Source: Desulfobacterales bacterium (lineage in GTDB: Bacteria > Desulfobacterota > Desulfobacteria > Desulfobacterales > UBA5852). From it: DNA of 64,000 nucleotides. Below the pieces are notes generated by a model that saw only the letters and a list, made by a program, of their open reading frames with translations, ran no database searches and was not told the DNA's origin. This document shows, in pieces, positions 40,549-62,512 of this stretch. The position numbers and the translations under genes are program-made. Location of the stretch: positions 9,675 through 73,674 of the forward strand of contig JBMNCP010000053.1 in the NCBI GenBank assembly GCA_049366795.1, given 5' to 3'. The first letter of the stretch is position 1. Every line of letters begins with the position of its first letter.

Positions 40549-40553
40549 GTTCT

Positions 40554-41567: not shown

Positions 41568-41643
41568 GGTCGACTTGCCGGGGAGCCACCCGCACCGACC
41601 AGGTGGTCGCGCCGATTGCTAAGGCCCCGTCGATCCGGAGATC

Positions 41644-42847: not shown

Positions 42848-45800
42848 TCACTGGCCGAGCACATCGATGCTCACGGTGGCATCGTTGGAGAGGCCGTAGG
42901 TTGCACCCGTGGTCAGGTTTTCGATCCTGACATTGTAAGTGAAGCCGTCCGATCCGACGAAACCGGGATTGGGGGTGTAAATGAACGACCCGTCGGCGTT
43001 CAGAACCAGTTCGCCGTGGGAAGGCGTCGTTGACAGACCCGCCCGCAGGATTTCACTGCCCCAGATGAAGCCGCCCTTGAGGTCGTTGCCCAGGATTCCT
43101 TCGGCCGCCACCGCCAGTTCGGAATCCCGAGTCGCTTCGAAACTGTCACCGATCGCCTGCGGTTGGACGACGAACCGCGGCGTGCGGGAGTCGCTGCCGC
43201 CTGCGCTGCTGGTGACCGTCACCTCCCCCGGGTGCTCGGCGACGCCGTCCAGGTAAAGCCGGTAATAGCCGCCGTTGAGGATGTGGGGGTCCGTGACGAA
43301 GTCCGCAAAGGAAATGCCGCCGTAGGAAAGCACCGCCGCAGGATCGTCGGTGGTCGCCCACAGCCTAAGTTGCTGGGCATCGGCCAGATAGTCCGTCCGA
43401 AGCAGGGTGACGGTGTCGGACGGCTCGCCGCCAGGGCTGCCGACCGCGATGCTCACGGCGGCTTCGTTGGACATCCCGTAGATCGCCCCTGTGTTCAGGT
43501 TCTCGATCCGTGCATGGTAGGTGAAGCCGTCCGATCCCGCGAAGCCGGGATCGGGGGTGTAGCTGAACGACCCGTCGGGGTTCAGTACCAGATCGCCGTG
43601 GGAGGGCGCCGTTGCCAGGACCGCCCGCAGGACTTCGCTGCCCCAGATGAAACCTCCCTTGAGGTCGTTGCCCAGGATTCCTTCGGCCGCCACCGCCAGT
43701 GCGGTGTTCTCCGCCGCCTCGAAAGCGTCTCCGATCGCCATCGGCTCGGAGATGTGCCTCGGTGTTCGGGTGTCGCTTCCGCCGCCGCTGCTGGTGACCG
43801 TCACCGCCCCCGGGTGCTCGGCGACACCGTCCAGGTAAAGCCGGTAATAGCCGCCGTTGAGGATGTGGGGCTCGGTAACGAAGTCCGCAAAGGAAACGCC
43901 GCCGTAGGAAAGCACCGCCGTGGGATCGTCGGTGGTCGCCCACAGCCGAAGCTGCTGGGCATCGGCCAGATAGTCCGCCCGAAGCAGCGAGACAGTGTCG
44001 GACGGTCCACCGCCCGCGGCGCTGACGGTAATGCTCACGGTGGCTTCGTTGGACATTCCGTAGATCGCGCCGGTGTTCAGATTCTCGATCCGCGCATAGT
44101 AGGTGAAGCTGTCCAACCCCACGAAACCGGGATTGGGTGTGTAAGTGAACGACCCCTCGCCGTTCAGAACCAAGCTGCCGTTGGACGGCGCCGTGGCCTC
44201 GAACGAGCGGAGTGCCTCGCTGCTCCAGATGTAGCCGCCCTTGAGGTCGTTTCCCAGGACCCCGTCTCCCGGAATCACCAGCTCGACGTCCTGTACCGCC
44301 TCGAAATTGTCCGAAACGGCCTCGGGCTCGGCAATGTAGCGGGGCACCCGGGTATCCGCGCCGCCAAGTTCGCTGGTGACGGTGACCACATCCGGTTTGA
44401 CGGCTACACCGTCCAGATAGAGCCGGCGATACCCGCCGTTCAGAATGTGAGGGTCGGACACATACTCCGAAAGTACGGATCCGTTGTACGCAAGGACGGC
44501 CTCCGGCGCGTCCGTCGTGGCCCAAAGACGCAGCTGATGGGAATCCGGCAAATAATCCGCGCGAATCAGAGTGACGGTGTCGGGCAGGTTGACGTTGTCG
44601 CAGTTCTGGTCGACGCCGTCGTCCGGGATTTCCAATGCACCGGGGTGGACCGCCGGATCCGAATCATTGCAATCGACGGGTGTTCCGCACCCATCGGGAG
44701 TGAAGTAGCCGTCCCTGTCGTCGTCCGAGCAGGCGAGGGCTTCACCGAGCGACAGATATGCGGAGGACACGTCCAGCAGGCCGTGACCATATGCATTGTC
44801 GGGACCGGGGGCGCCGAGATCCAGCGTGGACTGGCGCAGGATCGCTTCGAGCTGCTCAGGTGAAAGACCGGGAACGGCGCTCAACAGGAGCGCCATCGCG
44901 CCGGTTGCGTGGGGTGCCGCGAAGGAGGTTCCCGTGACGTAGGCATAGGAGTCCGGAATGAGCCCTCCGAAGGTGAGGTCCGTCGTCTTGACCCATTCAC
45001 CGGGAGCCGTGATGTCCGGGTAGGCGGCGCCGCTACACGCATTGGGACCGCTGCTGCTGTCATAGGAGACGAGGTAGTCGCTGCGGAGGGACCCCACGGG
45101 AAAGGCTCCGGGGTTGTTGGCGGGACTGATGCTGGTGTTTTCCGAGGGGCCCGTGTTGCCGGCGGCGAAGACGACGGCGATGCCGGCGACCTTCAGCAGG
45201 TCGATGTCCGTGGCGAATTCCTGGTAGCAGCTGCCGGCGGTATCGACGAATCCCCAGGAGTTGTTGACGATATTCGGCGAATCGTCGGTGCCCGGATTGC
45301 CGTCCGGGTCGAGCAGCCATTGAAACCCCAGGTGGATACTGCTCAGAGGCGCCACATCGCTGTCGTTGAAAATCTTAACGGCGATCCATTGGACGGAGGG
45401 GGCCATGCCGATCACCGATCCATCGGTGTCTCCCCCGGCGATCAGTCCCATGGTCTGGGTGCCGTGGCCGTTCGCATCGTAGGGCTCCGAATGCTGCCCG
45501 TTCGGGTCGTACCAGCTGTTGACGCCGCCGCGCCACCGGCCCGCAAGGTCCGGATGGTCAGGATCGACCCCGGTGTCCATGCTGGCCACCACCACGCCGT
45601 CTCCGGAATAACCATTCGCCCAGAGGATGTCGGCATTCGTCATCATCAGATTCCACTCGGGGGGGGCGGATGACTCAACGGTCGATGCCCCCAGGGGGAT
45701 GGCGATATCGAGCCGGATGGACTCGACGGCGGCCAGTTTGGACAGCTTGCGGATCGTGGCCTTGTCGGTGGAAACGGCGATCCCGTTCGTCAGCCAGAGC

Positions 45801-46123
45801 TGCCTGAACTTGTGGGATTTGCCCTGCCCCAGCATTTGAACGATCGGATTCTGGGTGGCATCCGCTTTCTGACGCAGGGCACGAATCAGCTGCCCTCGTC
45901 GGACCGTGCGCTTCAAATGCCTGAAGTCATCGGGCCGAACCTTGTCGCGAAGGGAAATAATAACGGGAATCGTCTCCTGCTGTTTCGTGCCCTGCATGGC
46001 TCCGAGCAGGTCGGGGGTGACCATGGCTGCCCAAAGCAGATTATGACTAAACAGCACCAGTAGGACGGCTATCACCGGGAAAAACGAATACTTGACTGGA
46101 TTGGATGGATTTACGGGTTTCAT
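42848..46123 (-). CDS. Secreted S8 subtilase with propeptide, MopE-like motif and three 194-aa Ig/cadherin-like modules
   Basis: Triad MDTG, GHGT, GTSFAAPH; oxyanion AAGN; DDDRDGY...DCNDSDPAVHPGALEIPDDGVDQNCD; repeats. Confidence 0.9.
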   Translation of the reverse strand: MKPVNPSNPVKYSFFPVIAVLLVLFSHNLLWAAMVTPDLLGAMQGTKQQETIPVIISLRDKVRPDDFRHLKRTVRRGQLIRALRQKADATQNPIVQMLGQGKSHKFRQLWLTNGIAVSTDKATIRKLSKLAAVESIRLDIAIPLGASTVESSAPPEWNLMMTNADILWANGYSGDGVVVASMDTGVDPDHPDLAGRWRGGVNSWYDPNGQHSEPYDANGHGTQTMGLIAGGDTDGSVIGMAPSVQWIAVKIFNDSDVAPLSSIHLGFQWLLDPDGNPGTDDSPNIVNNSWGFVDTAGSCYQEFATDIDLLKVAGIAVVFAAGNTGPSENTSISPANNPGAFPVGSLRSDYLVSYDSSSGPNACSGAAYPDITAPGEWVKTTDLTFGGLIPDSYAYVTGTSFAAPHATGAMALLLSAVPGLSPEQLEAILRQSTLDLGAPGPDNAYGHGLLDVSSAYLSLGEALACSDDDRDGYFTPDGCGTPVDCNDSDPAVHPGALEIPDDGVDQNCDNVNLPDTVTLIRADYLPDSHQLRLWATTDAPEAVLAYNGSVLSEYVSDPHILNGGYRRLYLDGVAVKPDVVTVTSELGGADTRVPRYIAEPEAVSDNFEAVQDVELVIPGDGVLGNDLKGGYIWSSEALRSFEATAPSNGSLVLNGEGSFTYTPNPGFVGLDSFTYYARIENLNTGAIYGMSNEATVSITVSAAGGGPSDTVSLLRADYLADAQQLRLWATTDDPTAVLSYGGVSFADFVTEPHILNGGYYRLYLDGVAEHPGAVTVTSSGGGSDTRTPRHISEPMAIGDAFEAAENTALAVAAEGILGNDLKGGFIWGSEVLRAVLATAPSHGDLVLNPDGSFSYTPDPGFAGSDGFTYHARIENLNTGAIYGMSNEAAVSIAVGSPGGEPSDTVTLLRTDYLADAQQLRLWATTDDPAAVLSYGGISFADFVTDPHILNGGYYRLYLDGVAEHPGEVTVTSSAGGSDSRTPRFVVQPQAIGDSFEATRDSELAVAAEGILGNDLKGGFIWGSEILRAGLSTTPSHGELVLNADGSFIYTPNPGFVGSDGFTYNVRIENLTTGATYGLSNDATVSIDVLGQ
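42851..44581 (-). repeat. Three diverged 582-bp coding repeats
   Basis: DTV-starting modules begin at 44581, 43999 and 43417 (period 582). Confidence 0.88.
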
Positions 46124-46231: not shown

Positions 46232-46696
46232 TCAGGAAACAATGAGCCCCCTCGCCTCGAAATCCCCGATCACGACGGAGACCTTGCTTCCCGCATGGAG
46301 GATTCGTTCGACATTCTGGAATAGGATGACGTAGGTCCGGTCCTTTTTCGGCATCATGTCCGAGCCCCGCAACGGGCCGAGCTTCGTCATGGGAACCGGC
46401 AGTACTTTTCCACTGAGATCGTCCACGAGATAGGCTTTGTGATTGCGATTCAAAACTTCCTTGGCCTTTTCGGGGTCGGTCACCCGGATTCGGAAATCGA
46501 TGAAGTGGCCGGCCCCGGTCAGCCGGACCGCCACGGGCCTGACCCCCCACTCTTCCTCGACCTGCTGCAGCATTTCAGCCTGAAGCGCTTCGCCTCGGGT
46601 GCCAAGAGCGGTGCATCCGACCGTCGCAACGATCAGGCCGAGCAGCAGAACGCCCAAAATGGGAGCAATTCGATTTTTCTTCACAAGGTCGCGCAT
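46232..46696 (-). CDS. Hypothetical lipoprotein
   Basis: Lipobox TVGC after a hydrophobic stretch; AGGAGG RBS; beta-rich core GHFIDFRIRVTDPEKA...YVILFQN. Confidence 0.72.
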   Translation of the reverse strand: MRDLVKKNRIAPILGVLLLGLIVATVGCTALGTRGEALQAEMLQQVEEEWGVRPVAVRLTGAGHFIDFRIRVTDPEKAKEVLNRNHKAYLVDDLSGKVLPVPMTKLGPLRGSDMMPKKDRTYVILFQNVERILHAGSKVSVVIGDFEARGLIVS

Positions 46697-46787: not shown

Positions 46788-48977
46788 TTAAGGTACGTTG
46801 ACGTTGAGGGTCACGGAAACGTCGTTGGACAGGCCGTAGATCGCGTTGGTATTCAGGTTCTCGATCCTGGCGTTGTAGGTGAAGCTGTCCGTTCCCGTGA
46901 ATCCCGCGTTGGGCGTGTAGGTGAACGATCCGTCGTTGTTCAGCGTCAGGTTCCCGTTGGCCGGAGCCGACACCAGGAACGATCTCAGCGCCTCGACGCC
47001 GAAGACGTAGCCGCCCTTGAGGTCGTTGGTGAGCACCCCCTCGGCGGGCACGTTCAACGCCGTGTCCTGAACCGCATCGTAGCTGTCCGCAACCGCCACG
47101 GGCGCGGCGATGTACAACGGCGTTTCGGTGTCGCTGCCGCCGGCGCTGCTGGTCACGGTCACCGCACCGGGATTGGACGCCACGCCATTCACATCGAGCT
47201 GATAGAAGCCCCCGTTGAGAATGTGCGTGTCTGCGGTAAAATTCACGAAGTCCGTCCCGTTATAGGAAAGCACCGCCGCGGGATCGTCGGTGGTCGCCCA
47301 CAACCGGAGCAGCTGGGACCCCGCCTGATACACCGCCCGCAGAATCGTCACCGTGTCCGTCGTTCCGCCGCCGCCCGTGCCGACGTTGAGGGTCACGGAA
47401 ACGTCGTTGGACAGGCCGTAGATCGCGTTGGTATTCAGGTTCTCGATCCTGGCGTTGTAGGTGAAGCTGTCCGTTCCCGTGAATCCCGCGTTGGGCGTGT
47501 AGGTGAACGATCCGTCGTTGTTCAGCGTCAGGTTCCCGTTGGCCGGAGCCGACACCAGGAACGATCTCAGCGCCTCGACGCCGAAGACGTAGCCGCCCTT
47601 GAGGTCGTTGGTGAGCACCCCCTCGGCGGGCACGTTCAACGCCGTGTCCTGAACCGCATCGTAGCTGTCCGCAACCGCCACGGGCGCGGCGATGTACAAC
47701 GGCGTTTCGGTGTCGCTGCCGCCGGCGCTGCTGGTCACGGTCACCGCACCGGGATTGGACGCCACGCCATTCACATCGAGCTGATAGAAGCCCCCGTTGA
47801 GAATGTGCGTGTCTGCGGTAAAATTCACGAAGTCCGTCCCGTTATAGGAAAGCACCGCCGCGGGATCGTCGGTGGTCGCCCACAACCGGAGCAGCTGGGA
47901 CCCCGCCTGATACACCGCCCGCAGAATCGTCACCGTGTCCGTCGTTCCGCCGCCGCCCGTGCCGACCGGCAGGAGAGCCAGCATGCCGCCCGGGGTGTCG
48001 GCGCCCGCGTTGGTGAGCCTGAGACGACCGTCGTACACTGCCAGGTCGCCTTCCGACGCGGGTTCCAGAATCACATCCATCGTCTTGGCCGGAGCCAGCT
48101 CGAATCCGTAGCGCTCCTGGGGGTAGAGGTAGGGGTTGCCGTCCTCTGCAACGAGGGTCATGTAGTGGCTCGGAACCTGGGGTACATGCGTGATCAGCCC
48201 CGCGTTGACGAACCGCAGCAGCACCCGCTGCCCCGCACCGACCGCCTCCAACGCGGTGTCCGGATAAGCCGCCCCGTTGATCAGGAAATACTGGGGCTCC
48301 CGATGAACGCTGCTGGGGATGTAAGGCCCGCTGGGGCTGGTGGGATTGGCGCCGTACCGCCCGTCGACGATGGCGTCATGGAGTTCGACGTCCATGTCGT
48401 GGAACACGATGGTTCTTTCAATATCGTATGCCTGGCCGGCATATGCCTCCCCGGACGCCGCGTCCTTCTTGACCACGGCGTAAAGCCCCATCTGGACCTG
48501 TCTGGCCGGGTTGGTGCCGCTCTGGTACAGATAGGTGCCCGGTCGGAAGTTGTTCCACGTATAAGTGGCCGTTCCACCGTTCGCGGCCGCCTCGTGCGTG
48601 AAGGACATCACCCGGTCGAGGCCCTCGTCATGGGTGCCGGGGGCTCCTGTGGTGAAAGTCGGCCCGGCGTTGTTGGAAAGTACCTGGCCGAGAATGTGGA
48701 GCGACACCGGCTCGGCCAGATGGTTGGTGAGGTTGATCTGCAGCGTCGGGTCACCGGGCGGAACGGTCAGTTCCGGCCCCGGTACCGAGATGGTGCAGCC
48801 CGCTCCGCTGTCGGTGCCGAAACCCCACACCGGGACGACGGTTCCGTCCGGCATGGTGACGGTACCGGCATCGACGCACAGATCGAATACGGCCGCCGAT
48901 CCGGTCCCGCCTCCGAAAACGAGGAGGAACAGGATCACCAGGCCAATCGTTAGCGAATAATTGCGTCTGCTTCTCAT
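46788..48977 (-). CDS. Two-cupredoxin-domain MCO-like protein lacking Cu ligands, plus two 194-aa modules (subunit C)
   Basis: PGPEL, PGTYLY, MGLY, INGAAYP, LLRFVN scaffold motifs; ligand positions replaced (SLHILG, YQSG, HVPQVP, YDG). Confidence 0.8.
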   Translation of the reverse strand: MRSRRNYSLTIGLVILFLLVFGGGTGSAAVFDLCVDAGTVTMPDGTVVPVWGFGTDSGAGCTISVPGPELTVPPGDPTLQINLTNHLAEPVSLHILGQVLSNNAGPTFTTGAPGTHDEGLDRVMSFTHEAAANGGTATYTWNNFRPGTYLYQSGTNPARQVQMGLYAVVKKDAASGEAYAGQAYDIERTIVFHDMDVELHDAIVDGRYGANPTSPSGPYIPSSVHREPQYFLINGAAYPDTALEAVGAGQRVLLRFVNAGLITHVPQVPSHYMTLVAEDGNPYLYPQERYGFELAPAKTMDVILEPASEGDLAVYDGRLRLTNAGADTPGGMLALLPVGTGGGGTTDTVTILRAVYQAGSQLLRLWATTDDPAAVLSYNGTDFVNFTADTHILNGGFYQLDVNGVASNPGAVTVTSSAGGSDTETPLYIAAPVAVADSYDAVQDTALNVPAEGVLTNDLKGGYVFGVEALRSFLVSAPANGNLTLNNDGSFTYTPNAGFTGTDSFTYNARIENLNTNAIYGLSNDVSVTLNVGTGGGGTTDTVTILRAVYQAGSQLLRLWATTDDPAAVLSYNGTDFVNFTADTHILNGGFYQLDVNGVASNPGAVTVTSSAGGSDTETPLYIAAPVAVADSYDAVQDTALNVPAEGVLTNDLKGGYVFGVEALRSFLVSAPANGNLTLNNDGSFTYTPNAGFTGTDSFTYNARIENLNTNAIYGLSNDVSVTLNVNVP
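46800..47966. repeat. Tandem 582-bp duplication, identical by eye
   Basis: 46800-47384 repeated at 47382-47966; no mismatch seen on reading. Confidence 0.92.
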
Positions 48978-48990
48978 GATCCTTGCCTCC

Positions 48991-50331
48991 TTATGGATTC
49001 TGCGGGTCGATCACCACCGAGGGATGTTCGACGATCATGAAGCTGACCAGTCCACCCGGCCAGATGTCGTTGCTGGTAAGTTCTTTTTCCGTATGGGAAT
49101 GCCACATGTAGAAATAGCCGGCCGTCGCATTGAGCCCCGGGTCTCCGGGTGCCAGATCGCCGGTTCCCCCAAGGAAGGGGCTCCCGGAATAGAACTGGCC
49201 GAAGGTCATGGAGTCGCGATTGGGAAGAATGACCGGGAACGGAATGCCGTGATCCGGGCAGTATTCGTAGGTGACATCGTCGAAATCATCCCCGTCCAGG
49301 TCGTTGCAGTCGTGGGGCTGGTCGCCGTAGATGTCCCAACCCAGCTTTTCGGCGGTCCAGGTCCAGACCACATCCGCCGTCTGCCCCGGAATCGTCTTGA
49401 TGGTCGTTGCTTTCCAGGCCAGGTCCGGCCCCTGTCCCGGCATGCTCTCGAGCAGCCGGCCGTCGACGGCGATGGTGTCGAAATCGTTGCCGTGAAGATG
49501 CAGGGGATGAAGATCCACGCCAGCGCCGATCAGCCGGATCAGGACCTTTTCACCCGGGTGCATCCTCGGCTGGCAGTTGTAGGGCTGCGTGGGCAGCCAT
49601 GGGACGAAGTTCTCCGCCATGAGGTCGGGGAAGTTTCTCCCGTTGATGAACCAGTTGGTGGGAAAATACGTTGTGGTATCCACCGCCTGCCCCAGTTCGA
49701 CCCGGCGGTGCAGGGTGGGGTCCATCTCGGTGATGAGATAGAGAAATTCCCGGTCATAGGCGGACTCCGGGTGGCCGTATGCCGTGGGATTGTCCGGATC
49801 GAAGCCTGCCGGCCGCACGATGATGGCGCCGGTCAGTCCCATCTCGACCTGGAGGTCGGGACGCGTCCCGCTGCGGTAAAGATAGGTGCCGGGTTCCGTG
49901 GCCTCGAAGGTGTAGGTGACCGTGCTGCCGGGAGCGGCTTCCCGGGCGAGGGGGCCCGCGCTGCCGCCTGTCGCGGCGGCCAGGTGGCCCGGGAACACGA
50001 TGGAGGTGGTCACCGACAGGTTGTTGGTCAGATTGACGGCTACGGTGTCACCCTCGTTGACGATCAGGGTCGGGCCCGGGTATTGGGGCGTCCCGAAAGG
50101 GTTCTCGGGATTGACATCCAGATCCTGATACAGCCACATCATGAAGCTGTCTCCGTCGGAGGTCACGATATATTCGGTGCCCGCCGCGAGGTTGAAGGTC
50201 CGAACGCCGGAAGCCAGCGTTCCCGTGATGCCGGGTATCCTGGCGTGGGCCGTCACCACGAAGCCCAGGAGCAAAGCGACGGCCAACCCCGCAACCCATG
50301 TCCTTTTTCTGTTGAATCGTATCGAGCGCAT
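48991..50331 (-). CDS. Two-domain MCO-like protein with T2/T3 His ligands only in domain 2 (subunit B)
   Basis: Signal peptide; domain 1 TSIVFPG/YRSG (no ligands); domain 2 HPLHLHG and WHSH. Confidence 0.85.
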   Translation of the reverse strand: MRSIRFNRKRTWVAGLAVALLLGFVVTAHARIPGITGTLASGVRTFNLAAGTEYIVTSDGDSFMMWLYQDLDVNPENPFGTPQYPGPTLIVNEGDTVAVNLTNNLSVTTSIVFPGHLAAATGGSAGPLAREAAPGSTVTYTFEATEPGTYLYRSGTRPDLQVEMGLTGAIIVRPAGFDPDNPTAYGHPESAYDREFLYLITEMDPTLHRRVELGQAVDTTTYFPTNWFINGRNFPDLMAENFVPWLPTQPYNCQPRMHPGEKVLIRLIGAGVDLHPLHLHGNDFDTIAVDGRLLESMPGQGPDLAWKATTIKTIPGQTADVVWTWTAEKLGWDIYGDQPHDCNDLDGDDFDDVTYEYCPDHGIPFPVILPNRDSMTFGQFYSGSPFLGGTGDLAPGDPGLNATAGYFYMWHSHTEKELTSNDIWPGGLVSFMIVEHPSVVIDPQNP

Positions 50332-50368
50332 GAAAGCCTCCTCGTTTACGTTGCCTGTCATGGATTGA

Positions 50369-51586
50369 TCAGTTGATCCGGATTTCGGTCATGATTCCGC
50401 CGCGTTCCTGGTCCCCGTTGGACAGATTCTCCAGGGTGGTCGCGTAAAGGAAATAAGTGCCGGCCGGAACCCCGGCGGTGTCGAGAATGACGTCATAGTG
50501 CTGCCCGCCCCCCACGTTGAGCACATTGAGGGTCATGGTGGTGTTCTTGCCGTCCGGTCCGCGCAGCAATGCCGCGCCCCGGCCCACCACGATCATGGGT
50601 TTTCCGATGGTGGTGGCGAAGGAGTAGATGTGCGTCGTCGAGATATTGGAGACCCTCAAAAGGATCCGTTCGCCCTGGTTGGCCTCGATGATCGTGGGGG
50701 TGACCTGCGCATCGAACTCCGGATCGTCCTGGTTGCCGATGGCGGCGTTTCGGATGGCGTCCGGGTAGCCGCGCCCGTTGATCATCGAGTAGGTGTCGTG
50801 CATGGCGGCGAATGGAAGCACGCCTACGTTCTCGGAGGCATCGTGGAAATTGGGGTCGAAACCGGTCATGAGAAGCGGGTATTCCCGGTCATAGCCGGTA
50901 GAGCCGTCCCCGTCGTTATAGGCGAACTTGGTATAGGTTCGCCCCTGGTAGTTGATGGAGGTTCCGTCCTGCTGCGGGTAGACCCAAAGGTTGCCGATCA
51001 TGCCCATCTGCATGTGCTCGGCCGCCTCGACGTGGCAGTGGTAGAAGAAAGTGCCCGGCTGCACCGCCTTGTAGTAGTAGGTGAAGCTTGCGCCCATGTT
51101 GGCGGTGGGCGAAGGCTCCGGCAGGCCGTCGAAGATCGGCGCTGCGTTGGGGAACCCGTGCCAGTGAACGGAGTGGGGGTCGAACAGATCCGGCCTGAGC
51201 ACCATGGTGACGTTGGTCATGGTGAGGTAGAGCTCCTGACCCTGGCGAACGGTGATCAGCGGCGCCGGGAGTTCCGCCTTGAGGAACTTGTTGGACATCA
51301 CTTCCTCGAGCGCGGGGCCTCCGGGAGTCAGGGGCTGGTGGTCGTCGGCATTGCCGAAGCTGAAGATGTACATCCGGCGGCCGTCGGCCATGGTGGCATA
51401 TCCATCGCCGCCGGTGATGTGGCGGCACACGATGTCGTTGTTAGGATCGCCGTCGCCGTCCGCGTCGATGCCGTCGACGTCTTCCGGACACTGGACATCG
51501 AGCGCGGCCATGGCCGGCGGAGCGCCGGCCAGGCCCAGCAGCAGCAGGGCGATCAGCAGGATCCTGAGTTGATGTATCGATTTCAT
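50369..51586 (-). CDS. Two-domain MCO-like protein with T1 and T2/T3 ligands only in domain 1 (subunit A)
   Basis: Signal peptide; domain 1 HSVHWHG and YHCHVEAAEHMQMGM; domain 2 IYSFATT/LYATT (no ligands). Confidence 0.87.
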   Translation of the reverse strand: MKSIHQLRILLIALLLLGLAGAPPAMAALDVQCPEDVDGIDADGDGDPNNDIVCRHITGGDGYATMADGRRMYIFSFGNADDHQPLTPGGPALEEVMSNKFLKAELPAPLITVRQGQELYLTMTNVTMVLRPDLFDPHSVHWHGFPNAAPIFDGLPEPSPTANMGASFTYYYKAVQPGTFFYHCHVEAAEHMQMGMIGNLWVYPQQDGTSINYQGRTYTKFAYNDGDGSTGYDREYPLLMTGFDPNFHDASENVGVLPFAAMHDTYSMINGRGYPDAIRNAAIGNQDDPEFDAQVTPTIIEANQGERILLRVSNISTTHIYSFATTIGKPMIVVGRGAALLRGPDGKNTTMTLNVLNVGGGQHYDVILDTAGVPAGTYFLYATTLENLSNGDQERGGIMTEIRIN

Positions 51587-51620
51587 CGCCGTCCTCCTCA
51601 TGGGTAAGATCTTCGAGAGG

Positions 51621-51660: not shown

Positions 51661-54600
51661 TCAGTTCACGAATTCATCCGCGCCGATGTCCGCCGAACCT
51701 CCAAAGGGGCGGGGATCATCGTCGAAGTCCAGGGACAATACGGCAGGCCCGACAGCGCCAGCCGCGTCCACCGCCAGCGATCCGCCCAGGATGTGGTAAT
51801 CCCCTTCGGGCGTCAGCGGTGTGAAGCGGATGTCGATGAAGTTGCCGCCTTCATCCGTGGCCGCTGCCGTCAGCGGCGTGGAGTCTTCGGGCATAGCCGT
51901 CAGCCCGCTGCTTCCGTTGAAGTACGGAATTTCAAAGAGCTGAGCGGGGTTCACAGGTCCCTCGACATTGGATCCATGGTAGCCCGTGGTGTCCGTGAGC
52001 AGGGAGAAGCGCGGATTCAGGATCTCGGCTGCCGGTGTGTCCAGCACGCCCAGATCGCTGATCCCGCTGTAGATCAGGCTGCCCACCCCGAGGGGATCGA
52101 TGGACCAGTAGAACGCGCGGTTGTTGTAGATGATGTTGTTTCGGAGCAAACGCGGCTGGGAGAATCCCAGTGCGTCGGGCCGGGTCAGCACGGCCGCCAG
52201 CGCCGGCGTATGGGCCCTGGACACGAGACCGGCCCCGGGTTGGGGGGTGGACATGGTGGAGCCGTCCGGACTCACCTCGTCGATCAGCGCACCGATGGTG
52301 GCTGTGCTGTCGTTGTGGGCGAAGGTGTTGCTCAGGATCCGGACCCGGGTGGCGTCCTTGAGCGAGATGCCGCCGCCGGCGGCGCCGCTCACGTTGTTCA
52401 CGACGATGTTGTTGAACACGTCGACCTGGTACCAACCGTTCAACCCCTCCGGCTGCCCGGCCACATCCTGACCGTTCACGAAGGCCAGACGAATGCCGCC
52501 GCCGTCGCCGGCTCCGGACACATTGCCCTGGATGAGGTTGGAGAGGATGGTCACGGTTCCCGAACCTTCGGTAAGCCCGCCGGGAACCTGCGCGCCTTCG
52601 ATGGCGATACCGCCGCCGCCGATGTCCATGGGCATCTGGTTGAAGGACTGGTTGAAGAGGATCTTGTTGTCCTCGATCAACCCCTGGTTACTCAAGCCGA
52701 TGTGGCCGATGCCGCCGCCGGATCCGGTCGAGAAGTTGCCGCAGATGTAATTTTCGACGACCCGGTACCGGTCCGCGCCGGTGTAGAGCGCCACGCCGCC
52801 CGGAGAACCGGTGGGGCTTCCGTTCTGGGAGATCCAGTTGTTGTGGATATAGACGAAGTCATTGAAGGCATCCTCCGCACCGTCGGCCAGGAAGGGGTGC
52901 CCCACCTGGATGCCGCCGCCGGAATGGCCCTCGTTTCCGAAGATCTTCATGTTGCTGACTTCCAGATATCGGGCGTAGCCGTTCACGACGATGCCGCCGC
53001 CGATATCCGCGCCCGTGATGGACAATCCGTCGATCCGGGCATTGGGATTCGATCCGAATCCGCCGTTGGCCGGAGTTCTGTTGAGCGCCAGCACGGTGAT
53101 GCCCGCCCCTTCTGCGGTGGTCAGCAGACCGGGTTCGTTGTTGGCGGGGTCGAACGCGGCATTCTGGCCCGGAAGGAGATCGGCCAGCCGGTTGGGACCG
53201 GGTACCGCAGGATCGACGGTGGGAATGCCGGCGGCGGTATGCGGAATGTCGAGAACGTCCAGAATCTTGTTCCGCCAATTCTGAAGCTTCTCACCCGGTC
53301 GCTTCACGGCATTGATGATGGTAGAGTGGGGACCCCAGCCTTGAAGCTGGACCGGTTTGTACATGATCACCAGCTCCTCGTAGACGCCCGGGGCGACCAG
53401 GATGAGATCTCCGGGTTGGGCCAGGTCAATGGCATCCTGGATGGGCGTGGCGCCGGGAGTGGTATTCGGGGTGACCGACCAGACATTGCGGCCGCCAGGC
53501 AGCCCTGCCGCATAGGAATCGACAACGGTGACCGTCACACCAAACGGCGAGGTGACCGGTTCAGGTACGCCAAATTCCCTGGTGACGTATAGTTGATAGG
53601 TTCCCGCGGAAGTGCCGGCAGGAACAGTGGCTCTGATGCTGCCTCCTGACCACTGTGCGATCTGGAGTGGAACGACATTCCCGGAGCCGTCGACCATCTC
53701 GACAGATCCAGGCGTCTGGCCGAAGAAGTAATTGCGTTGGCCGTAAGGCGTATTGATGAACCCAACCGACTGGATCAGCAACTGGCTGCCAGCCTGCACA
53801 TACGGTCCTCCACCAACGCCGTTGCCGGTTGCATTCACAACAGAGATCATAGGCGTCTGGTTGGGATACTCGCAGTCCAGCGGTGACTGGTTCGCCCCGG
53901 CGAAAGCGGCGATGGGCAGCACCGGCGTATCCAGGTAGGTGGTGGCGCCCGGCATGTACTGGAAAGTGTAGCAGAACTGCGTGTATTGGGACCTGTAATT
54001 CGGATCGACGATAAATTCAGGTGCTCCCGGGTTTGTGACCGGATCGTAGTCCGGGTTGGGGATCGGGCCCGGATCGTTCATGCAGGCGATCAGCATGTTG
54101 GGTCCCATGCCGCTGGGGCTGGACACGTTGGCCGTGAAGGTGGAAGGCACGAGGACGTTGTACGTGCCGTACTCATCGGAGTAGACGCGCGCGACCTCTT
54201 TTCCGTTGTAGTCGTAGAAGGCTACCGGCAGCCAGGGCGGCGCGAATTTCTCCCCGAAGTTGGGATTGGCCGGGTCGAACTCGTTGGCCAGGTCGTCCAG
54301 GATAAAACCCTTGACATGGGCCGAGACCGGGGCGTCCGTGAACAGGAAGAATTCGGCCGGCACATTGGCGCGGGCCGGCAGGACCACCTGCTTCTGATCG
54401 CAGGTCCTCAGATCGGCTCCCGCATTGACCGGGGCCGGAAAATCCGGATCCGCGGCATCGCTGAACAGCGAGTATTCCGCCGGAACCGTGTACTCCTCAC
54501 CCACACAGATCGCCGGAATGGCCTGGGGGCTCGGGATGTATTCCTCGCCGAAGTCGACGTTCTTGTCCTGGGCGCGGACGATCTTGTAACCCGTGGGCGG

Positions 54601-56823
54601 AACGGCCTCGACGATGTAGACACCCGGCAGCAGCCCTTCCCCGGTCGCCGAATCGTAGCCGCCGAAGGCAAAGCCGCCGTCGAACACCGCATCGCGCACC
54701 TGGTTGAAGTTCCGCAGCCCGTCGTAGCACTTGTCGGGCAGAACCGCGGCGGGATCAGAGGGATCGGCGCCGGGGCAGCCTTCGGGAAGGCTGTCGTCCC
54801 AGGAATCCGTCGTGGTCACATCCACCGCGTCACCGAGGCTGAAGGTGACACCGTCGCCGCTTCGCACGATATCCTCGTCTCCCTTTGCGCCGCCTTCAGC
54901 CCAGCCGAACGGGAAGTTGTCCACGTCGGCCAGGTCGATTTCACCGTTCCCGTTGAGATCGTCGATAAACGTGTCGTTGTTGTCGTCCCGGTACAGCACC
55001 ACCTGAACGCGGGGGACACCGGGCTGCCATTCCTCGCCGAAACCGAAGCGTGGATCGTCCTCGGCCCGGGTGGTGTCGTAGAACACGATGCCCGAGATGC
55101 CGCCGCTTTCATCACCCTGGTAGTTGTTCTTTCCCCAGTAGATGATGTTGGTCTGCCCAAGGAATGTCTGGAGGCCCTGGGTCAGGACCTCGCCGGTCTC
55201 GGTTCGGGACAGGTTGTTGTTGGTGTTCGGGTTGACATTGGGCTGGGGCTGCGGCGTCAGGCGATCGAAGGACGGCCAGTCCCACCCGTTGTGGGGCAGC
55301 ACCTCCCCGCCGGCGTCAGCGACGGCGGTCATGCCCGTGGCCTTGAACCTGGCGAAGTCGACTTCGGCGATCAACCAGGAGAAGAAGGGAAAGACTTCGT
55401 CGAAGCTGTAATTGCCCGCGGAGTCGGTGGTGGTCGCGTTGTACACAGTGCCGTCCCGCCATCTCAGCAGCACCGCCTGGTCCGGAAAGCCGGCCTCGCC
55501 GGGATCCGGGAAGCCGTCCATGTCGGTGTCGAAGAAGACCTGGCCCTCGAGGTGGCCGAACCAGTCGAAGACTCCGACGTCTTGCAAGTCGACCACCGTG
55601 TCGCCTTCGGCCACGACGATCTGCTCCTGGGCGAAAATCACGTCCAGGTTGTTGTCCCAGATGGCCAGGGTGTAATTGCCCGGAGGAACGTTCGGTATGT
55701 CGAAGCTGCTGTCGCCCTCGCAGGGTTGGGCGTAAATTCCCACGCCGGCCGCATCGTTAAGGCCCACCCAGCAGTCCGGGAAGGGGTTCCCCGGCCACAT
55801 GGTGTAAAGCGGGGGACGGGACATGTGGGTGCTGACCACCCTTCCGGATACCGTGGCCGAGCCGTTGAGATCCGGAAGCCCGTCGTTGTTGCGATCGGCG
55901 GTTCCGTCCAACCTGCGGATGAAACCGAAATCCGCGTGATGGCCCGCCGGGCCGAACTCGGTGAAGTATGGAGGCTCGTTGGCCTTGACCCAGGCATCGA
56001 TGGTCTTGGTCCCTTCGATGGTGCTGGTCTGAACCCAGCCGCCCCCCAGGGGTTCCCGGACGGTGACCCCGTATTTGGCCGGGGGAAGATTCTTGACGAT
56101 CACGATTCCGTGCTCGTTCGTCACGAGGCGCCCGGATGTCGCGGCCTGCCCGGGATCGTTGATCCCATCCAGCGCCGAGTTGACGATCGGGTTCCCGAAG
56201 GCGTCCTGGGTAATAGGGCCCCCGGCGGCGCCGAAGCGGCCTCCGGCCTCGACCAGTTGGATTTCAAAATTTTGAAGCCCTTGCTCCGCCGGGAGATCGG
56301 GCACGTTGTTGATCGGATACATGTCTTCGAAAACGAAGATGGAAATCTGAGCGGTCGGTGTCGGCAGGGAGTTGAGAGTGACGTTGACCGACGTCTGGCC
56401 GGGCCGGATCTGCGCACCGCCCATGTTGTAACCGCCGGGATCGGCAGGAAGCACGGAGATGAAATAATGAGCGTCCGGCTGGCCTGCAAATCCGGCGAGC
56501 GCGGCGGCATCTTCCGGCAGCCTGGTGTCGCCGGTCATTACCAGCGGCATGTAGCTCCTGTCGAAATTGAGACTGAGCGCATTGTCCGGATCGGCATTGC
56601 CGGATACGCCCGGAACATGGTGATAGGTTTCGTCCCGTTCGATGGTGAACCGATACTCGATCCCCAACGGAACCCCGTTCTCATCGAAAAGATTCACCGA
56701 GAGCGCCCGGGCGCCCGAAGTGAAGGCGAAGCCTGCGATGAGAAACACAGCGAACGCCAGAATCCATTGCGGGCCGGGCCACGCGCCTGCCGTCGACCGC
56801 ACCCTGTGTCGTGAACTGTTCAT
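51661..56823 (-). CDS. Giant secreted protein (~1720 aa): SdrD/Cna-B-like beta-sandwiches, IPT-like domain, right-handed beta-helix, choice-of-anchor-Q-like end
   Basis: Signal peptide; GQVFFDTDMDG...TTTDSAGNYSF; IQDAIDLAQPGDLILVAPGVY, IDGLSITG, repeated GGGI/N-ladder motifs; DFDDDPRP....DIGADEF; ATG 56823 after GGAGG. Confidence 0.8.
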   Translation of the reverse strand: MNSSRHRVRSTAGAWPGPQWILAFAVFLIAGFAFTSGARALSVNLFDENGVPLGIEYRFTIERDETYHHVPGVSGNADPDNALSLNFDRSYMPLVMTGDTRLPEDAAALAGFAGQPDAHYFISVLPADPGGYNMGGAQIRPGQTSVNVTLNSLPTPTAQISIFVFEDMYPINNVPDLPAEQGLQNFEIQLVEAGGRFGAAGGPITQDAFGNPIVNSALDGINDPGQAATSGRLVTNEHGIVIVKNLPPAKYGVTVREPLGGGWVQTSTIEGTKTIDAWVKANEPPYFTEFGPAGHHADFGFIRRLDGTADRNNDGLPDLNGSATVSGRVVSTHMSRPPLYTMWPGNPFPDCWVGLNDAAGVGIYAQPCEGDSSFDIPNVPPGNYTLAIWDNNLDVIFAQEQIVVAEGDTVVDLQDVGVFDWFGHLEGQVFFDTDMDGFPDPGEAGFPDQAVLLRWRDGTVYNATTTDSAGNYSFDEVFPFFSWLIAEVDFARFKATGMTAVADAGGEVLPHNGWDWPSFDRLTPQPQPNVNPNTNNNLSRTETGEVLTQGLQTFLGQTNIIYWGKNNYQGDESGGISGIVFYDTTRAEDDPRFGFGEEWQPGVPRVQVVLYRDDNNDTFIDDLNGNGEIDLADVDNFPFGWAEGGAKGDEDIVRSGDGVTFSLGDAVDVTTTDSWDDSLPEGCPGADPSDPAAVLPDKCYDGLRNFNQVRDAVFDGGFAFGGYDSATGEGLLPGVYIVEAVPPTGYKIVRAQDKNVDFGEEYIPSPQAIPAICVGEEYTVPAEYSLFSDAADPDFPAPVNAGADLRTCDQKQVVLPARANVPAEFFLFTDAPVSAHVKGFILDDLANEFDPANPNFGEKFAPPWLPVAFYDYNGKEVARVYSDEYGTYNVLVPSTFTANVSSPSGMGPNMLIACMNDPGPIPNPDYDPVTNPGAPEFIVDPNYRSQYTQFCYTFQYMPGATTYLDTPVLPIAAFAGANQSPLDCEYPNQTPMISVVNATGNGVGGGPYVQAGSQLLIQSVGFINTPYGQRNYFFGQTPGSVEMVDGSGNVVPLQIAQWSGGSIRATVPAGTSAGTYQLYVTREFGVPEPVTSPFGVTVTVVDSYAAGLPGGRNVWSVTPNTTPGATPIQDAIDLAQPGDLILVAPGVYEELVIMYKPVQLQGWGPHSTIINAVKRPGEKLQNWRNKILDVLDIPHTAAGIPTVDPAVPGPNRLADLLPGQNAAFDPANNEPGLLTTAEGAGITVLALNRTPANGGFGSNPNARIDGLSITGADIGGGIVVNGYARYLEVSNMKIFGNEGHSGGGIQVGHPFLADGAEDAFNDFVYIHNNWISQNGSPTGSPGGVALYTGADRYRVVENYICGNFSTGSGGGIGHIGLSNQGLIEDNKILFNQSFNQMPMDIGGGGIAIEGAQVPGGLTEGSGTVTILSNLIQGNVSGAGDGGGIRLAFVNGQDVAGQPEGLNGWYQVDVFNNIVVNNVSGAAGGGISLKDATRVRILSNTFAHNDSTATIGALIDEVSPDGSTMSTPQPGAGLVSRAHTPALAAVLTRPDALGFSQPRLLRNNIIYNNRAFYWSIDPLGVGSLIYSGISDLGVLDTPAAEILNPRFSLLTDTTGYHGSNVEGPVNPAQLFEIPYFNGSSGLTAMPEDSTPLTAAATDEGGNFIDIRFTPLTPEGDYHILGGSLAVDAAGAVGPAVLSLDFDDDPRPFGGSADIGADEFVN

Positions 56824-56943
56824 ACGGCCTCCATCTCCTTGAAAGGGTTGAGGGGTTGATGATCCCATTCCCGAAAACCGCCTGTTTCCAGTTAGAAGCC
56901 GGCCTCGTCCGGCCGCGAATCACCTGATTCGTAGAGCAGCGGT

Positions 56944-57211: not shown

Positions 57212-58582
57212 TCAGTCGATCCCGTAGCTTTCCAGTTTCCGGCGAAGGGTGCTGAGGCTGACGTCCAGGATACGGGCGGTCTGGGATTTGTTGCGGTCGG
57301 TGGCCTGGTAGGCATGGAGGATGTGCCGCCGTTCGAGTTCGGCGAGCGGCAGGATGTCGGGGCCACCGGGGACGGAGGCTCCCGGATGGCGGTTTCGGCT
57401 CTTGCGGACGGATTCCGGAAGAAAGCGGCTGAAGAGCCCCCTTCCCTGGCTCAGGTTCAGGGCGGCGTGGACGATCGCCTTCAATTCGCGGATGTTGCCC
57501 GGGAACGGATATTCCATAAGAGTTTCGACGGCGTCGTCTTCTACGGTGCAGGCTTCGGGTCGTTCGCAGAACTCGGCGAAGAAGTGGTTGATCAGCAGAG
57601 GGATGTCGCCGGCCCGCTCCCGGAGCGGAGGAAGATCGAGCCAGGCCCCCCTGAGCCGGTAGTAGAGATCCTTTCGGAATCTTTTCCGCGCCATCAGCTT
57701 TTCGAGGTCTTCGTTGGTCGCGGCGATGATCCGGATGTCGGCCTTCTGGGGGCGGCTGGTCCCCAGCTTGATGAACTCTCCGCTTTGCAGCACCCGCAGA
57801 AGTTTCCCCTGCAGCTCGAAGGGCAGGTTGCCGATCTCGTCGAGGAAAAGCGTTCCCTTGTGGGTGGTCTCCAGGAAACCCGCCCGGTCGTCTTCGGCGC
57901 CGGTGAAGGCGCCCCGCGTGTGCCCGAAGAATTCGGCGCCGAAAAGCGTTCCGTCCACCGCATCCATGTTGATGGCGGTGAAGGGGTGCCTGGAACGGCT
58001 GCTGGCCTGGTGGATCGCCCTGGCCAGCAGCTCCTTACCGGTCCCCGTCTCCCCGCTCACGAGGATCGGCACGTCGCTTCGGGCATGAAGCTCGGCTTCC
58101 CTCAGAAGCCGCTGAACGGCGCTGGATTGAGTGACGATCGGCGCAAAGGCTTCTCGGTTTCTGAGGGCCGGAAGGGTCTTCCGTTTTCCGAGATCGATAA
58201 TGTCGAAGAGGTGCTTGCGTTCCTGGGCGCGGCGGACGGACTTCAGGAGATCCTCCTTGGAAATCGGCTTCACCAGGTAGTCGTAGGCCCCGTTTTTGAG
58301 GCAGTCGACGGCCACCCTGGCCTCGTCGATGGCCGTCACCATGATGCACTCGGTCTGGGGGCTTGCGGACTTGATGATGGAGAGCAGTTCGATTCCCGTC
58401 ATGCCGGGCATGGTGATGTCGATGAGGGCGATGTCGAAGTCCTCGCCGTCCTCGAACCGCCTCGCGGCGGCTCTCGCATCCGGCTCCACGTGGATGTTGC
58501 GATACCCCGAGGTCACCAAGCCGCGCCGGATGCTTTCCAGAAAATCCCTCTCGTCGTCGATGACAATGATGCTCGAATCCAT
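57212..58582 (-). CDS. Sigma54-dependent response regulator (REC-AAA+-Fis HTH)
   Basis: IDDE, DITMPG, GETGTGKE, GAFTGA, LFLDEIG, FRKDLYYRL, FPGNIREL, C-terminal HTH. Confidence 0.95.
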   Translation of the reverse strand: MDSSIIVIDDERDFLESIRRGLVTSGYRNIHVEPDARAAARRFEDGEDFDIALIDITMPGMTGIELLSIIKSASPQTECIMVTAIDEARVAVDCLKNGAYDYLVKPISKEDLLKSVRRAQERKHLFDIIDLGKRKTLPALRNREAFAPIVTQSSAVQRLLREAELHARSDVPILVSGETGTGKELLARAIHQASSRSRHPFTAINMDAVDGTLFGAEFFGHTRGAFTGAEDDRAGFLETTHKGTLFLDEIGNLPFELQGKLLRVLQSGEFIKLGTSRPQKADIRIIAATNEDLEKLMARKRFRKDLYYRLRGAWLDLPPLRERAGDIPLLINHFFAEFCERPEACTVEDDAVETLMEYPFPGNIRELKAIVHAALNLSQGRGLFSRFLPESVRKSRNRHPGASVPGGPDILPLAELERRHILHAYQATDRNKSQTARILDVSLSTLRRKLESYGID

Positions 58583-61700: not shown

Positions 61701-62086
61701 TTATCGGAGCCGGATGTCAGTCGGCTGACCTCGTAAAGGCAGTTCAAAGCCTCGAGACTTCCCGGGTCCGACGCGGTGCCGGCTCCCTCGGCTTCGCCTC
61801 CGATGCAGTCCATGCCGCATACCAACGGCATCGATTCGAGGACCCCGCCAGCCGTCAGGCCCGCTTCGAAAATGTCGAGTTCATCGGAAGCGTCGGCATC
61901 CTGATCCATCTTGATCGCCAGTGCATCTCGGAGAATCCCGTTTTCGGCTTCGAGGTCCGATGCCCGCGCCTCGAGTTCGGCAACCCGGCGTCGAAGCTCC
62001 TCGAGGGATTCCGAAGACGCGCCTGCGGGCGTGACGTTCGAATCGAACCTCGGGTCGCGGAGTTCGAATTCAGAGCTGTCGTTCAT
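58754..62086 (-). CDS. Cytoplasmic PAS/GAF sensor histidine kinase; start approximate
   Basis: Three PAS-like domains and a GAF; H-box VAHELNNP, NAAQA, DNGCG, PFFSTK, GSGLGL; no obvious TM helix. Confidence 0.9.
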   Translation of the reverse strand: MNDSSEFELRDPRFDSNVTPAGASSESLEELRRRVAELEARASDLEAENGILRDALAIKMDQDADASDELDIFEAGLTAGGVLESMPLVCGMDCIGGEAEGAGTASDPGSLEALNCLYEVSRLTSGSDKSLEQVLQEIAERLPGLWPSPGAAGVRIAFGKRVFGEYPDSPERPALASELFLAGRTVGFVGVLRDTDRDVPPGEQTPPPDVDVQLLRAIAEKINTLVARHHQAAISHRSETRFRKIFATSPDGIAISRLEDGRFLDVNEGFALLSGFEREEVIGKSSIDIHAWVPPELRTRFIRELTANKTVRNFEAELRRKDGFVITALISATLIELDGQANILSVIRDITLLKQTESALLRQRQDLERQNAVLRKTQAELEASRERYSDLYHSAPVGYLTFDRNCRIVNSNRTAARLLGCDSSELERTPFLDFLVPEDRQAFFGHIQKVFDSGNRQVCEIRMFRRLKGDFHARIESAPQFDDDGQTVLCRTTISDNSEFKKAELALQASYRFLRIASSLSSLEPTLEAFIREIKSLTGCTAAGIRLLEGDGAIPYAANDGFCESFLKLENPISIHSDECMCIRVICGEVDSSKPYFTGMGSFFTQSTGRLATELSAGNTIRTRDACNRFGYESVALIPVRAENRVIGLIHVADIRKGRLPLETVQLLENAGIQLGAGIQRMWAEAELRKANERLEERVAERAAEVIRSNEQLKNEVRERRRAETLLLEQQGMLQAVFDGISDPLILADKDLRVLMVNSAAVRYLKLQDQKTVIGRTCREVMRHNPEACDACQMPQAVDSGRIVTFERDGFIDPSRQEQVVVYPVSGSETGKGRVVIRINDITESRLLERQIIQSEKLASLGMLVSSVAHELNNPNSFIAFNVPILKEYFNELLPIVDRHAAENPDFEVLNMPYAEFRKDAFRLLENLTHGSQRIDAFLGNLREFARTHPDTAMKWVDLKEVVDRALAICRSKIQKTVKTLDIRMPAGRPRIYSNAGTLEQILINLLVNAAQAADKKDSWIRMAIARTDDPEPGWRITVSDNGCGMDEKTRLQIFDPFFSTKLNEGGSGLGLYVCRRLLRDISGTIQAESRAGEGSTFTVTLPDRGPQDS

Positions 62087-62512
62087 GATGATCCATCGAT
62101 GGCTGGAGGCCGTATCAGGCCGGGCATCCTTTCGGGCGATGAACCCGTTTTCCTGCTCAGGTTGATGGTTCTGGATGAAGATGAATGTCGAGGCACCGGC
62201 GCGCATCGATCGAAGAATCGAGCCGCCCGGTTTTGATCGCCTTTATGTTTAATCCATATGTGAAAGACCTGCAAGGCTTGGATGATGCACGTCCTGCCCC
62301 GCTGTCTCCCGCTGTTTCCGCCTGCCGCGGCCCGGCCATGGCGGGCCGGTCTCGGGGGAAATGCCGTACAAAACCAGAGGATGCAGGCGTATCCGGATAT
62401 TAACATCGTATCTTATATCATACTATTATAATCGGGAATCATCTCACTATGAAATAAAACTGCAACTGTATTGTCCTGTAAACCATTACAGTTACCGATA
62501 AGCCTGAATTTC

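Follow-up and report, generated by a model that had tools for sequence, protein, structure and literature searches.

Gene content and copper-ligand layout

The window examined here, a stretch of 64,000 nucleotides from a Desulfobacterales bacterium (NCBI GenBank assembly GCA_049366795.1, contig JBMNCP010000053.1, positions 9,675 to 73,674 of the forward strand), contains six genes that follow each other head to tail on the minus strand (Table 1). They encode, in this order, a large protein that we refer to as Up, three paralogous multicopper oxidase (MCO) subunits, here called A, B, and C, a small lipoprotein, and an S8 subtilase. The intergenic gaps from Up to the S8 gene are 59, 7, 13, 91, and 108 nucleotides long, with the gaps of 7 and 13 nucleotides located between A and B and between B and C, respectively. 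An earlier reading of this DNA, made without database searches and here called the sequence-only reading, had described A, B, and C as a three-gene unit. The linkage of the three genes was upheld by the comparisons described below, but the unit was larger than had been proposed, in that the operon also holds the 1735-amino-acid scaffold protein Up, the small lipoprotein, and the S8 protease.

The A, B, and C proteins all start with a hydrophobic N-terminal signal sequence, and each of them contains 2 separate regions whose Pfam matches, to Cu-oxidase_3 and to either Cu-oxidase or Cu-oxidase_2, exceeded the curated cut-offs. The Pfam regions and the translations agreed with the previous description of each gene as coding for a signal peptide followed by 2 cupredoxin domains. 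The gene starts suggested at that time, position 51586 for A and position 50331 for B, turned out to be internal methionine codons of the listed open reading frames, and either start is compatible with the sequence features.

Domain 1 of A contains the complete set of ligands for a type 1 (T1) copper (H143, C189, H196, and M201) as well as 4 histidines of a trinuclear cluster (H146, H148, H188, and H190), located in the motifs HSVHWHG and YHCHVEAAEHMQMGM, and the protein also carries a conserved Cys38/Cys59 loop. Domain 2 of A has no ligands, and a profile alignment with hhalign placed Y326, T330, I332, Y386, and T388 at the positions of the domain 2 ligands in B. In the B protein, domain 2 retains H285, H288, and H290 in the motif HPLHLHG and H421-S422-H423 in the motif WHSH, with a serine in the place of the T1 cysteine, and it also contains an insertion of about 80 amino acids with an invariant histidine, H371. 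The positions that correspond to the ligands of A in domain 1 are occupied by T/V/P and S-G-T...L in both B and C, according to profile-profile alignments. The T1 site, which is located in domain 1 as in the type C two-domain MCOs, is present in A only and gone from B and C.

A regular-expression search found no HxxHxH, HCH, or HxH motif in the first 345 residues of C, and Pfam identified Big_9/cadherin-like immunoglobulin-like (Ig-like) modules in the tail of C and also in the S8 protein. Each part of the ligand layout proposed by the sequence-only reading was recovered: ligands in domain 1 but not in domain 2 of A (translation and hhalign), ligands in domain 2 but not in domain 1 of B and no T1 cysteine (translation and alignments), and no intact motif but Ig-like modules in C (regular expressions and Pfam). 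The complete ligand set of an MCO, that is a T1 site and 8 cluster histidines, is obtained from A and B together, with H288, H290, H421, and H423 of B completing the 4 histidines of A, and no single chain has the full set.

Table 1. Coordinates of the operon genes, the copper-ligand motifs, and the regulatory genes upstream of the operon in the window.
Feature	Position	Strand	Description
PAS/GAF histidine kinase	58754..62206	minus	Upstream of the regulator; homolog in 5/80 loci
Sigma-54-dependent response regulator	57212..58582	minus	Directly upstream of Up; homolog near the operon in 11/80 loci
Up	51661..56868	minus	1735 aa; presumed oxidase scaffold
Subunit A	50369..51601	minus	410 aa; signal peptide and two cupredoxin domains
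A motif HSVHWHG, residues 143-149	51155..51175	minus	One T1 His and two cluster His
A motif YHCHVEAAEHMQMGM, residues 187-201	50999..51043	minus	Two cluster His, T1 Cys, T1 His, axial Met
Subunit B	48991..50361	minus	456 aa; signal peptide and two cupredoxin domains
B motif HPLHLHG, residues 285-291	49489..49509	minus	Domain 2
B motif WHSH, residues 420-423	49093..49104	minus	Domain 2
Subunit C, whole gene	46788..48977	minus	729 aa
Subunit C, cupredoxin part, residues 1-340	47958..48977	minus	Signal peptide, two cupredoxin domains without copper ligand
Subunit C, tail	46788..47957	minus	Two 582-nt repeats, each one Big_9/cadherin-like Ig module
Small lipoprotein-like protein	46232..46696	minus	154 aa; lipobox VGC
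S8 subtilase	42848..46123	minus	1091 aa; MopE-type metal-binding motif; three copies of the 582-nt tail module of C

Conservation of the ligand pattern across phyla

To place the ligand pattern in a broader context, we compared 2 sets of 80 loci each. Set 1 was obtained from a scan of one genome per species, which identified at least 566 relatives among 595 pattern-matched stretches, from which the best 80 loci were taken; the record titles indicated Desulfobacterota, Nitrospirota, Planctomycetota, Acidobacteriota, Gammaproteobacteria, Myxococcota, Bacteroidales, and others. Set 2 consisted of 80 metagenome loci that were seeded from a B-C fusion protein and was more divergent than set 1, with A proteins that were only 31-41% identical to the A protein in the window. 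Relatives of A were numerous, with 6378 matches among 8000 scored candidates and sequence identities of 50-60% out to Myxococcus and Phycisphaerae, and the identities of A across phyla ranged from 45% to 75%. Desulfoferrobacter suflitae and Myxococcus sp. RHSTA-1-4 were among the named sources of these relatives.

The 8 ligand columns of A were identical in 81 of 81 sequences in set 1 plus the window, and all 57 of the A proteins scored in set 2 contained one HxxHxH motif plus the HCH and T1 motifs. In the B proteins of set 1, an HxxHxH motif and a later HSH motif were found in all complete genes (78/78), the other 2 of the 80 being cut by a contig end, and the residues H285, H288, H290, H421, S422, and H423 were invariant in the family alignment. 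The same pattern was retained in the 78 complete B genes of set 2 (78/78). For C, none of the 47 complete genes in set 2 contained a motif, and the set 1 alignment showed no conserved histidine or cysteine, with just 15 columns that were at least 95% conserved; the corresponding number for A was 89 columns. C was also the fastest-evolving of the 3 proteins, with a mean pairwise identity of 0.44, as compared with 0.53 for B and 0.59 for A. The profile alignments indicated that the lost ligands have been replaced by the same residues throughout the families, and in none of the complete genes of the 160 loci were both halves of the cluster present on one chain.

Since the pattern was identical in every complete gene of both 80-locus sets, it is, as judged from these alignments, far beyond chance, and random decay is excluded. 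The alignment of homologous triplets that had been proposed earlier as a check thereby refuted a random loss of ligands. A history in which A, B, and C are 3 decaying duplicates of one oxidase gene, with a complementarity that is accidental, would account for the bare fact that ligands are missing on each chain and for nothing more, and its probability is negligible given that the pattern is shared by many phyla, that the open frames are long, and that A is so strongly conserved across phyla.

It was also noted that a few histidines outside of the classical ligand motifs were invariant, namely His253 in A and His218 and His371 in B. Moreover, a histidine in a DPxxH sequence of the interdomain linker was common to all 3 paralogs, although in C, where it is located at position 200, it was a histidine in just 58 of 75 sequences.

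Gene linkage, distribution, and export

The gene order Up-A-B-C recurred in nearly all loci. C was present in 74 of the 80 loci in set 1, and the 6 loci in which it was missed were all at contig ends. Considering the loci in set 2 that had room for the gene in question, A was located upstream of B in 54 of 54 cases, and a third paralog without ligands was located downstream in 49 of 49 cases, 46 of which were most similar to C while the remaining 3 were most similar to B and free of motifs. The 80 loci of set 1 had Up ahead of A, as did all 35 loci with room in set 2. The genes at the other end of the operon were less constant: the S8 gene, which was frequent but not universal, was identified in 35 of the 57 loci with at least 3 kb of sequence after C, and tblastn recovered the small lipoprotein from 55 of the 80 loci, where it was usually located between C and S8. 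Correlations were observed between the A, B, and C distance matrices (Mantel r 0.57-0.68, with 0 of 999 permutations as high).

Of the 301 genomes sampled from the phylum to which the window belongs, 15 contained an ortholog of A (E <= 1e-80), and this was the case for 0 of 9 genomes of the same order. The operon is thus an accessory trait with a patchy occurrence. The patchy distribution across many phyla suggests that the operon has spread horizontally. The carriers are widespread bacteria from sediment, groundwater, soil, and compost, and some belong to lineages named as iron oxidizers, sulfur oxidizers, or sulfate reducers.

A single metatranscriptome run contained 5 short contigs that matched C, B, A, and Up perfectly, which gives a weak hint that the operon is transcribed. 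Two other runs that were labelled transcriptomic are probably DNA and were not taken as support for transcription.

No twin-arginine translocation (Tat) motif was detected in the N-termini examined (1 A, 37 B, and 52 C sequences). A pair of arginines in the signal sequence of C in the window was considered as a Tat signal and rejected, as it was not conserved among these N-termini. Because there is no conserved Tat motif, the subunits probably cross the membrane in an unfolded state and assemble outside the cytoplasm.

Natural fusions of the operon proteins

Fusions between neighboring proteins of the operon were identified in several loci. Up and A were joined in one frame in 8 of the 80 loci in set 1 and in 44 of 120 long homologs of A, C and Up were joined in one frame in 4 of the 80 loci, and a B-linker-C arrangement was observed in 9 of 33 long homologs of B. 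No signal peptide was present at the junctions in the 12 Up-A and C-Up loci or at the 5 true B-C junctions that were inspected. The linkers were mostly Ig-like in the Up-A and C-Up fusions, and those of the B-C fusions hold a small extra segment. A single A-B-C chain was not found among the 33 long B and 120 long A homologs inspected. Two candidates for other combinations were rejected: the A-B protein P0261 (1 of 120 candidates) and the B-C-Up protein P0129 both contain an internal signal peptide and garbled arginine-rich stretches, and they are probably neighboring genes that were merged by frameshift errors.

The A protein was also fused to modules that are not part of the operon in the window. 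A PAP2/VCPO_2nd-like module was located at the N-terminus in about 20 of the 120 long homologs, according to precomputed Pfam annotations, and was confirmed with hmmscan in 3 of 3 proteins tested. These PAP2/vanadium-chloroperoxidase-like fusions were found in Planctomycetes, Kiritimatiellia, and related bins, where the module takes the place of a preceding full Up. The same kind of domain preceded a B-type protein in P0128, and single homologs of A contained an alkaline phosphatase-like (P0198) or a dehydrogenase-like (P0215) N-terminal module. Taken at the level of domain architecture, the varied N-terminal fusions suggest a common oxidase core that may be placed on exchangeable partners.

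The exchange of partners also bears on a different explanation, namely that the copper center is real and yet not that of a classical O2-reducing oxidase, so that it would serve as a redox module for the enzyme domain to which it is joined (in the window the beta-helix of Up, elsewhere the PAP2/vanadium-haloperoxidase-like domain or others) or handle nitrogen oxides in the manner of NirK. The diversity of the modules fused to A would fit with this explanation, as would the many hosts named as anaerobic lineages (Desulfobacteraceae, Thermodesulfovibrio, and Sedimentisphaerales) and the presence of nitrite reductases among the PDB matches of A and B. However, NirK has a single type 2 copper, whereas 8 cluster histidines plus a T1 site connected through His-Cys-His are the signature of the O2-reducing MCOs, and this is the set that A and B provide. 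Furthermore, the closest PDB sequences to both A and B were the type C two-domain oxidases 3g5w, the blue copper oxidase of Nitrosomonas europaea, and 2zwn, the metagenomic mgLAC, and the motifs of B align to HAIHTH and HDH, which are the domain 2 ligand motifs of 3g5w. We therefore consider a role other than O2 reduction to be distinctly unlikely.

The predicted A:B interface and the possible place of C

The complex of residues 58-410 of A with residues 42-456 of B was predicted from these 2 chains, with C not included. The score for A:B was 0.85, as compared with 0.00 for the best control, a level that 58 of 80 solved complexes attained, as did 2 of 110 mismatched pairs. The contacts were at least 97% shared between runs, and the partner chain was modelled with a pLDDT (predicted local distance difference test) value of at least 90. 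In the predicted interface, His146, His148, and His190 of A are set against His288, His290, and His423 of B, which is the type C kind of arrangement with domain 1 of one chain facing domain 2 of the next, here seen for two chains only. The complementarity of A and B, as put forward by the sequence-only reading, is strongly supported by the invariant ligand columns, the strict co-occurrence of the genes, and this predicted histidine interface between domain 1 of A and domain 2 of B, and we consider it very probable, with the model taken into account, that A and B share one cluster.

Outside of domain 2, residues 199 and 235 of B were the only ones that touched A in the model, and the surface of domain 1 was otherwise free. 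Four domains cannot close a six-domain ring, which would need 2 more, and the model leaves domain 1 of B almost free. A place in the ring is plausible for C, given its constant presence, its fold, and the geometry. In a crude test of conservation at the surfaces where C is expected to make contacts, only the S1-equivalent surface of C, 1 of 4 surfaces, showed a higher conservation than other parts (p 0.025).

It could also be that A and B are catalytic on their own, either as a pair of A and B or as a trimer that includes another copy of one of them, and that C is located outside of the ring as a copper-free cupredoxin adaptor for the scaffold, the surface, or the substrate. Such an arrangement would be in line with the rapid evolution and few conserved columns of C, its highly variable tail, its absence from the modelled A:B fold, and the 3 of 4 C-related surfaces that gave no support in the conservation test. 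On the other hand, a third paralog without ligands was located in every locus with room in both sets, C has kept the two-domain oxidase fold (hhalign probability of 99.7-100% to A and B), the almost free domain 1 of B in the A:B model leaves room for a third chain, and the B-C, C-Up, and Up-A fusions link C to the same assembly. We regard a position of C outside of the ring as rather unlikely, albeit less so than a copper center that does not reduce O2.

The proposed heteromeric oxidase

The interpretation that we favor, and consider somewhat probable as a whole, is that A, B, and C form an obligately heteromeric two-domain MCO with one T1 copper and one trinuclear center, in which C is part of the ring and the enzyme is tethered to Up. 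The 3 proteins would descend from a homotrimeric enzyme of type C, similar to that in Nitrosomonas. The substrate would be oxidized at the T1 copper of A (His143, Cys189, His196, and Met201), and the electrons would reach a trinuclear cluster by way of Cys189 and the adjacent His188 and His190. One half of this cluster would be provided by A (His146, His148, His188, and His190) and the other by B (His288, His290, His421, and His423). Since A and B each supply 4 cluster histidines, a single O2-reducing center is predicted at the interface between domain 1 of A and domain 2 of B, where O2 would be reduced to water. The copper-free C would most likely take up the 2 places that are left in a ring of six domains, so that each ring would have one active site, and may act as a tether by means of its Ig-like tail. 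The Ig-like domains of the Up scaffold would form a stalk that bears the ring beside a beta-helix, with the small lipoprotein and the S8 protease accompanying the ring, and the Sec-type signals on all subunits would imply that assembly and copper loading take place outside the cytoplasm.

We infer the 1:1:1 stoichiometry, the position of C in the ring, the oxidase activity, and the roles of Up, the lipoprotein, and the S8 protease from the combination of these data, and metal ions or phenolics are guesses at the substrate. A more far-reaching version, in which the 3 genes give rise to a ceruloplasmin-like six-domain ring with a single active site, and in which this ring reduces O2 at the heart of a modular machine outside the cytoplasm that has lineage-specific partners, has in our view an even chance of being correct.

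Several observations weigh against this interpretation. The A:B score may reflect a memory in the prediction model of the solved homotrimeric two-domain oxidases, and a pass in this test is a sign that the interface is like theirs rather than that the 2 proteins bind. No true A-B fusion was found among the 120 long homologs of A, and the 3 other C-related surfaces had p values of 0.39-0.96 in the crude conservation test. The correlated distances of A, B, and C would also be expected from simple co-inheritance and provide weak support. The proposed model leaves the invariant His253 in A and His218 and His371 in B unaccounted for. Finally, the S8 gene was missing from 22 of the 57 loci with room for it, and the lipoprotein was not detected in 25 of the 80 loci.

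Comparison with other multicopper oxidases

The A and B proteins resemble the type C MCOs in having 2 cupredoxin domains, of which domain 1 provides the T1 site together with half of the cluster ligands and domain 2 provides the remaining ones, and the cluster would likewise be formed between chains. In the type C enzymes, one chain holds both halves and the homotrimer has 3 sites; homotrimeric two-domain MCOs are described in PMC11761707. Here, the halves are located on different gene products and the third product has none, and there can therefore be at most one site per ring.

If A, B, and C form a 1:1:1 ring, the complex would be similar to ceruloplasmin, which is a ring of 6 cupredoxin domains with a single trinuclear cluster and sites that have been lost elsewhere. 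Ceruloplasmin is one polypeptide, whereas the ring would here be built from 3 genes with their own signal peptides, for which two-subunit fusions elsewhere are of the B-C type only. According to a published scheme (PMC3600357), six-domain proteins have evolved from a two-domain ancestor that was triplicated and then lost sites.

A two-domain oxidase trimer in which the chains are not all alike is also represented by Nmar_1354 from Nitrosopumilus maritimus (PDB 9cck), which is described as an alpha-alpha-alpha' heterotrimer whose T1 and trinuclear sites are located where the two-domain MCO units meet (PMC11761707). The chains of Nmar_1354 are products of a single gene, with a dangling cupredoxin as the sole difference between them, while in the present case 3 paralogous genes are involved and the ligands are split between them. 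Like C, the FtsP/SufI protein of Escherichia coli and the insect protein MCORP have kept the fold and lack the copper ligands (PMC2661564, PMC4203857). FtsP/SufI and MCORP act alone in other processes, whereas C is always located beside 2 partners that jointly have a full set of ligands.

Oxidases that depend on additional subunits are known, one of them being the Bacillus Mnx complex. Others are the fungal small-subunit laccases of the POXA3/NLAC type (PMC10443355). Unlike A, B, and C, the copper subunit holds all ligands in both POXA3/NLAC and Mnx, and the partners are not cupredoxin paralogs.

We found no heteromeric or split two-domain oxidase in the full-text articles searched, and the sole protein referred to as a heterotrimer was the single-gene Nmar_1354. 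As far as we could find, every characterized MCO carries the whole set of ligands in one kind of chain. A trinuclear cluster formed only between 2 gene products would, if confirmed, be a new assembly principle for the MCO family, to which a copper-free paralog as the third member of the ring would add. The complex would then also provide a present-day intermediate in the evolution of ceruloplasmin and other six-domain oxidases from two-domain trimers, with the 3 genes representing a stage of triplication and subsequent loss of sites that has been kept as separate paralogs. A natural two-domain oxidase with a single site could in addition be useful for spectroscopy. Because the operon is widespread, including in lineages of iron and sulfur oxidizers and sulfate reducers, its substrate may be of importance for the cycling of metals or organic matter.

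Up, the lipoprotein, the S8 protease, and the tail of C

The Up protein consists of an N-terminal hydrophobic anchor or signal, Ig-like domains that matched SdrD_B, CarboxypepD_reg, and fn3_3, a right-handed beta-helix for which a weak NosD-like match was obtained, and an end of the choice-of-anchor Q type. It was conserved along its whole length, with 257 columns that were at least 90% conserved among 58 sequences. No PDB sequence matched Up at E <= 0.1, and only clusters of uncharacterized look-alikes were retrieved from the protein atlas. NCBIfam contained no specific model for any of the operon proteins.

For the small lipoprotein, an AlphaFold2 model made with an alignment had a pLDDT value of 95 and consisted of an N-terminal helix plus a beta-sandwich; the model made without an alignment was poor (pLDDT 52.7), and the alignment-based model was used. 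A Foldseek search against PDB gave no match at E <= 0.001, with generic beta-sandwiches only. The protein was not assigned to any Pfam family, and since its sequence has no conserved histidine, cysteine, or methionine, it is probably not a copper chaperone.

The tail of C in the window contains 2 tandem copies of a 582-nucleotide repeat (positions 46800-47966), which were 100% identical over the 300 nucleotides compared. The repeats exceed the longest period of Tandem Repeats Finder (500) and were detected with another repeat search. The perfect identity suggests either a very recent duplication or an assembly artifact. Three copies of the same unit, with 67-72% identity, were located in the S8 protease gene (positions 42860-44608), and the sharing of this module suggests that C and the S8 protease may bind the same partner. 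Elsewhere, the tail of C was variable in length, from 0 to about 700 amino acids, and in 4 loci it ran on into Up.

Genes flanking the operon in the window

The sigma-54-dependent response regulator gene upstream of Up is a possible regulator of the operon, although the indication is weak, and the link between the operon and the PAS/GAF kinase gene is likewise weak (Table 1); neither gene is a conserved neighbor of the operon elsewhere. A sigma-54-like site at positions 56944-56959, which is 76-91 nucleotides before Up and has 2 mismatches, was rejected as a candidate promoter element, since the window contained 26 such matches as compared with 24.95 expected, which is at the level of chance.

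Downstream of the operon, the segment at positions 37090-42351 on the minus strand contains genes for a PEP-CTERM-type protein (41644-42351), a sulfotransferase-like protein, 2 glycosyltransferases, and an exosortase EpsH fused to DUF3485, and represents an exopolysaccharide/exosortase locus. Exosortase/PEP-CTERM and glycosyltransferase genes were located near the operon in 0 of the 80 loci elsewhere. On the opposite side, a multiheme cytochrome c gene on the plus strand (62624-64000), with matches of the Cytochrome_C7, c554, and NapC-NirT-like types, runs past the end of the window. It was also noted that the guanine plus cytosine content was 0.40-0.47 at positions 1-4000 and 14001-18000, as compared with about 0.60 elsewhere in the window, and these 2 stretches may be foreign or mobile DNA.

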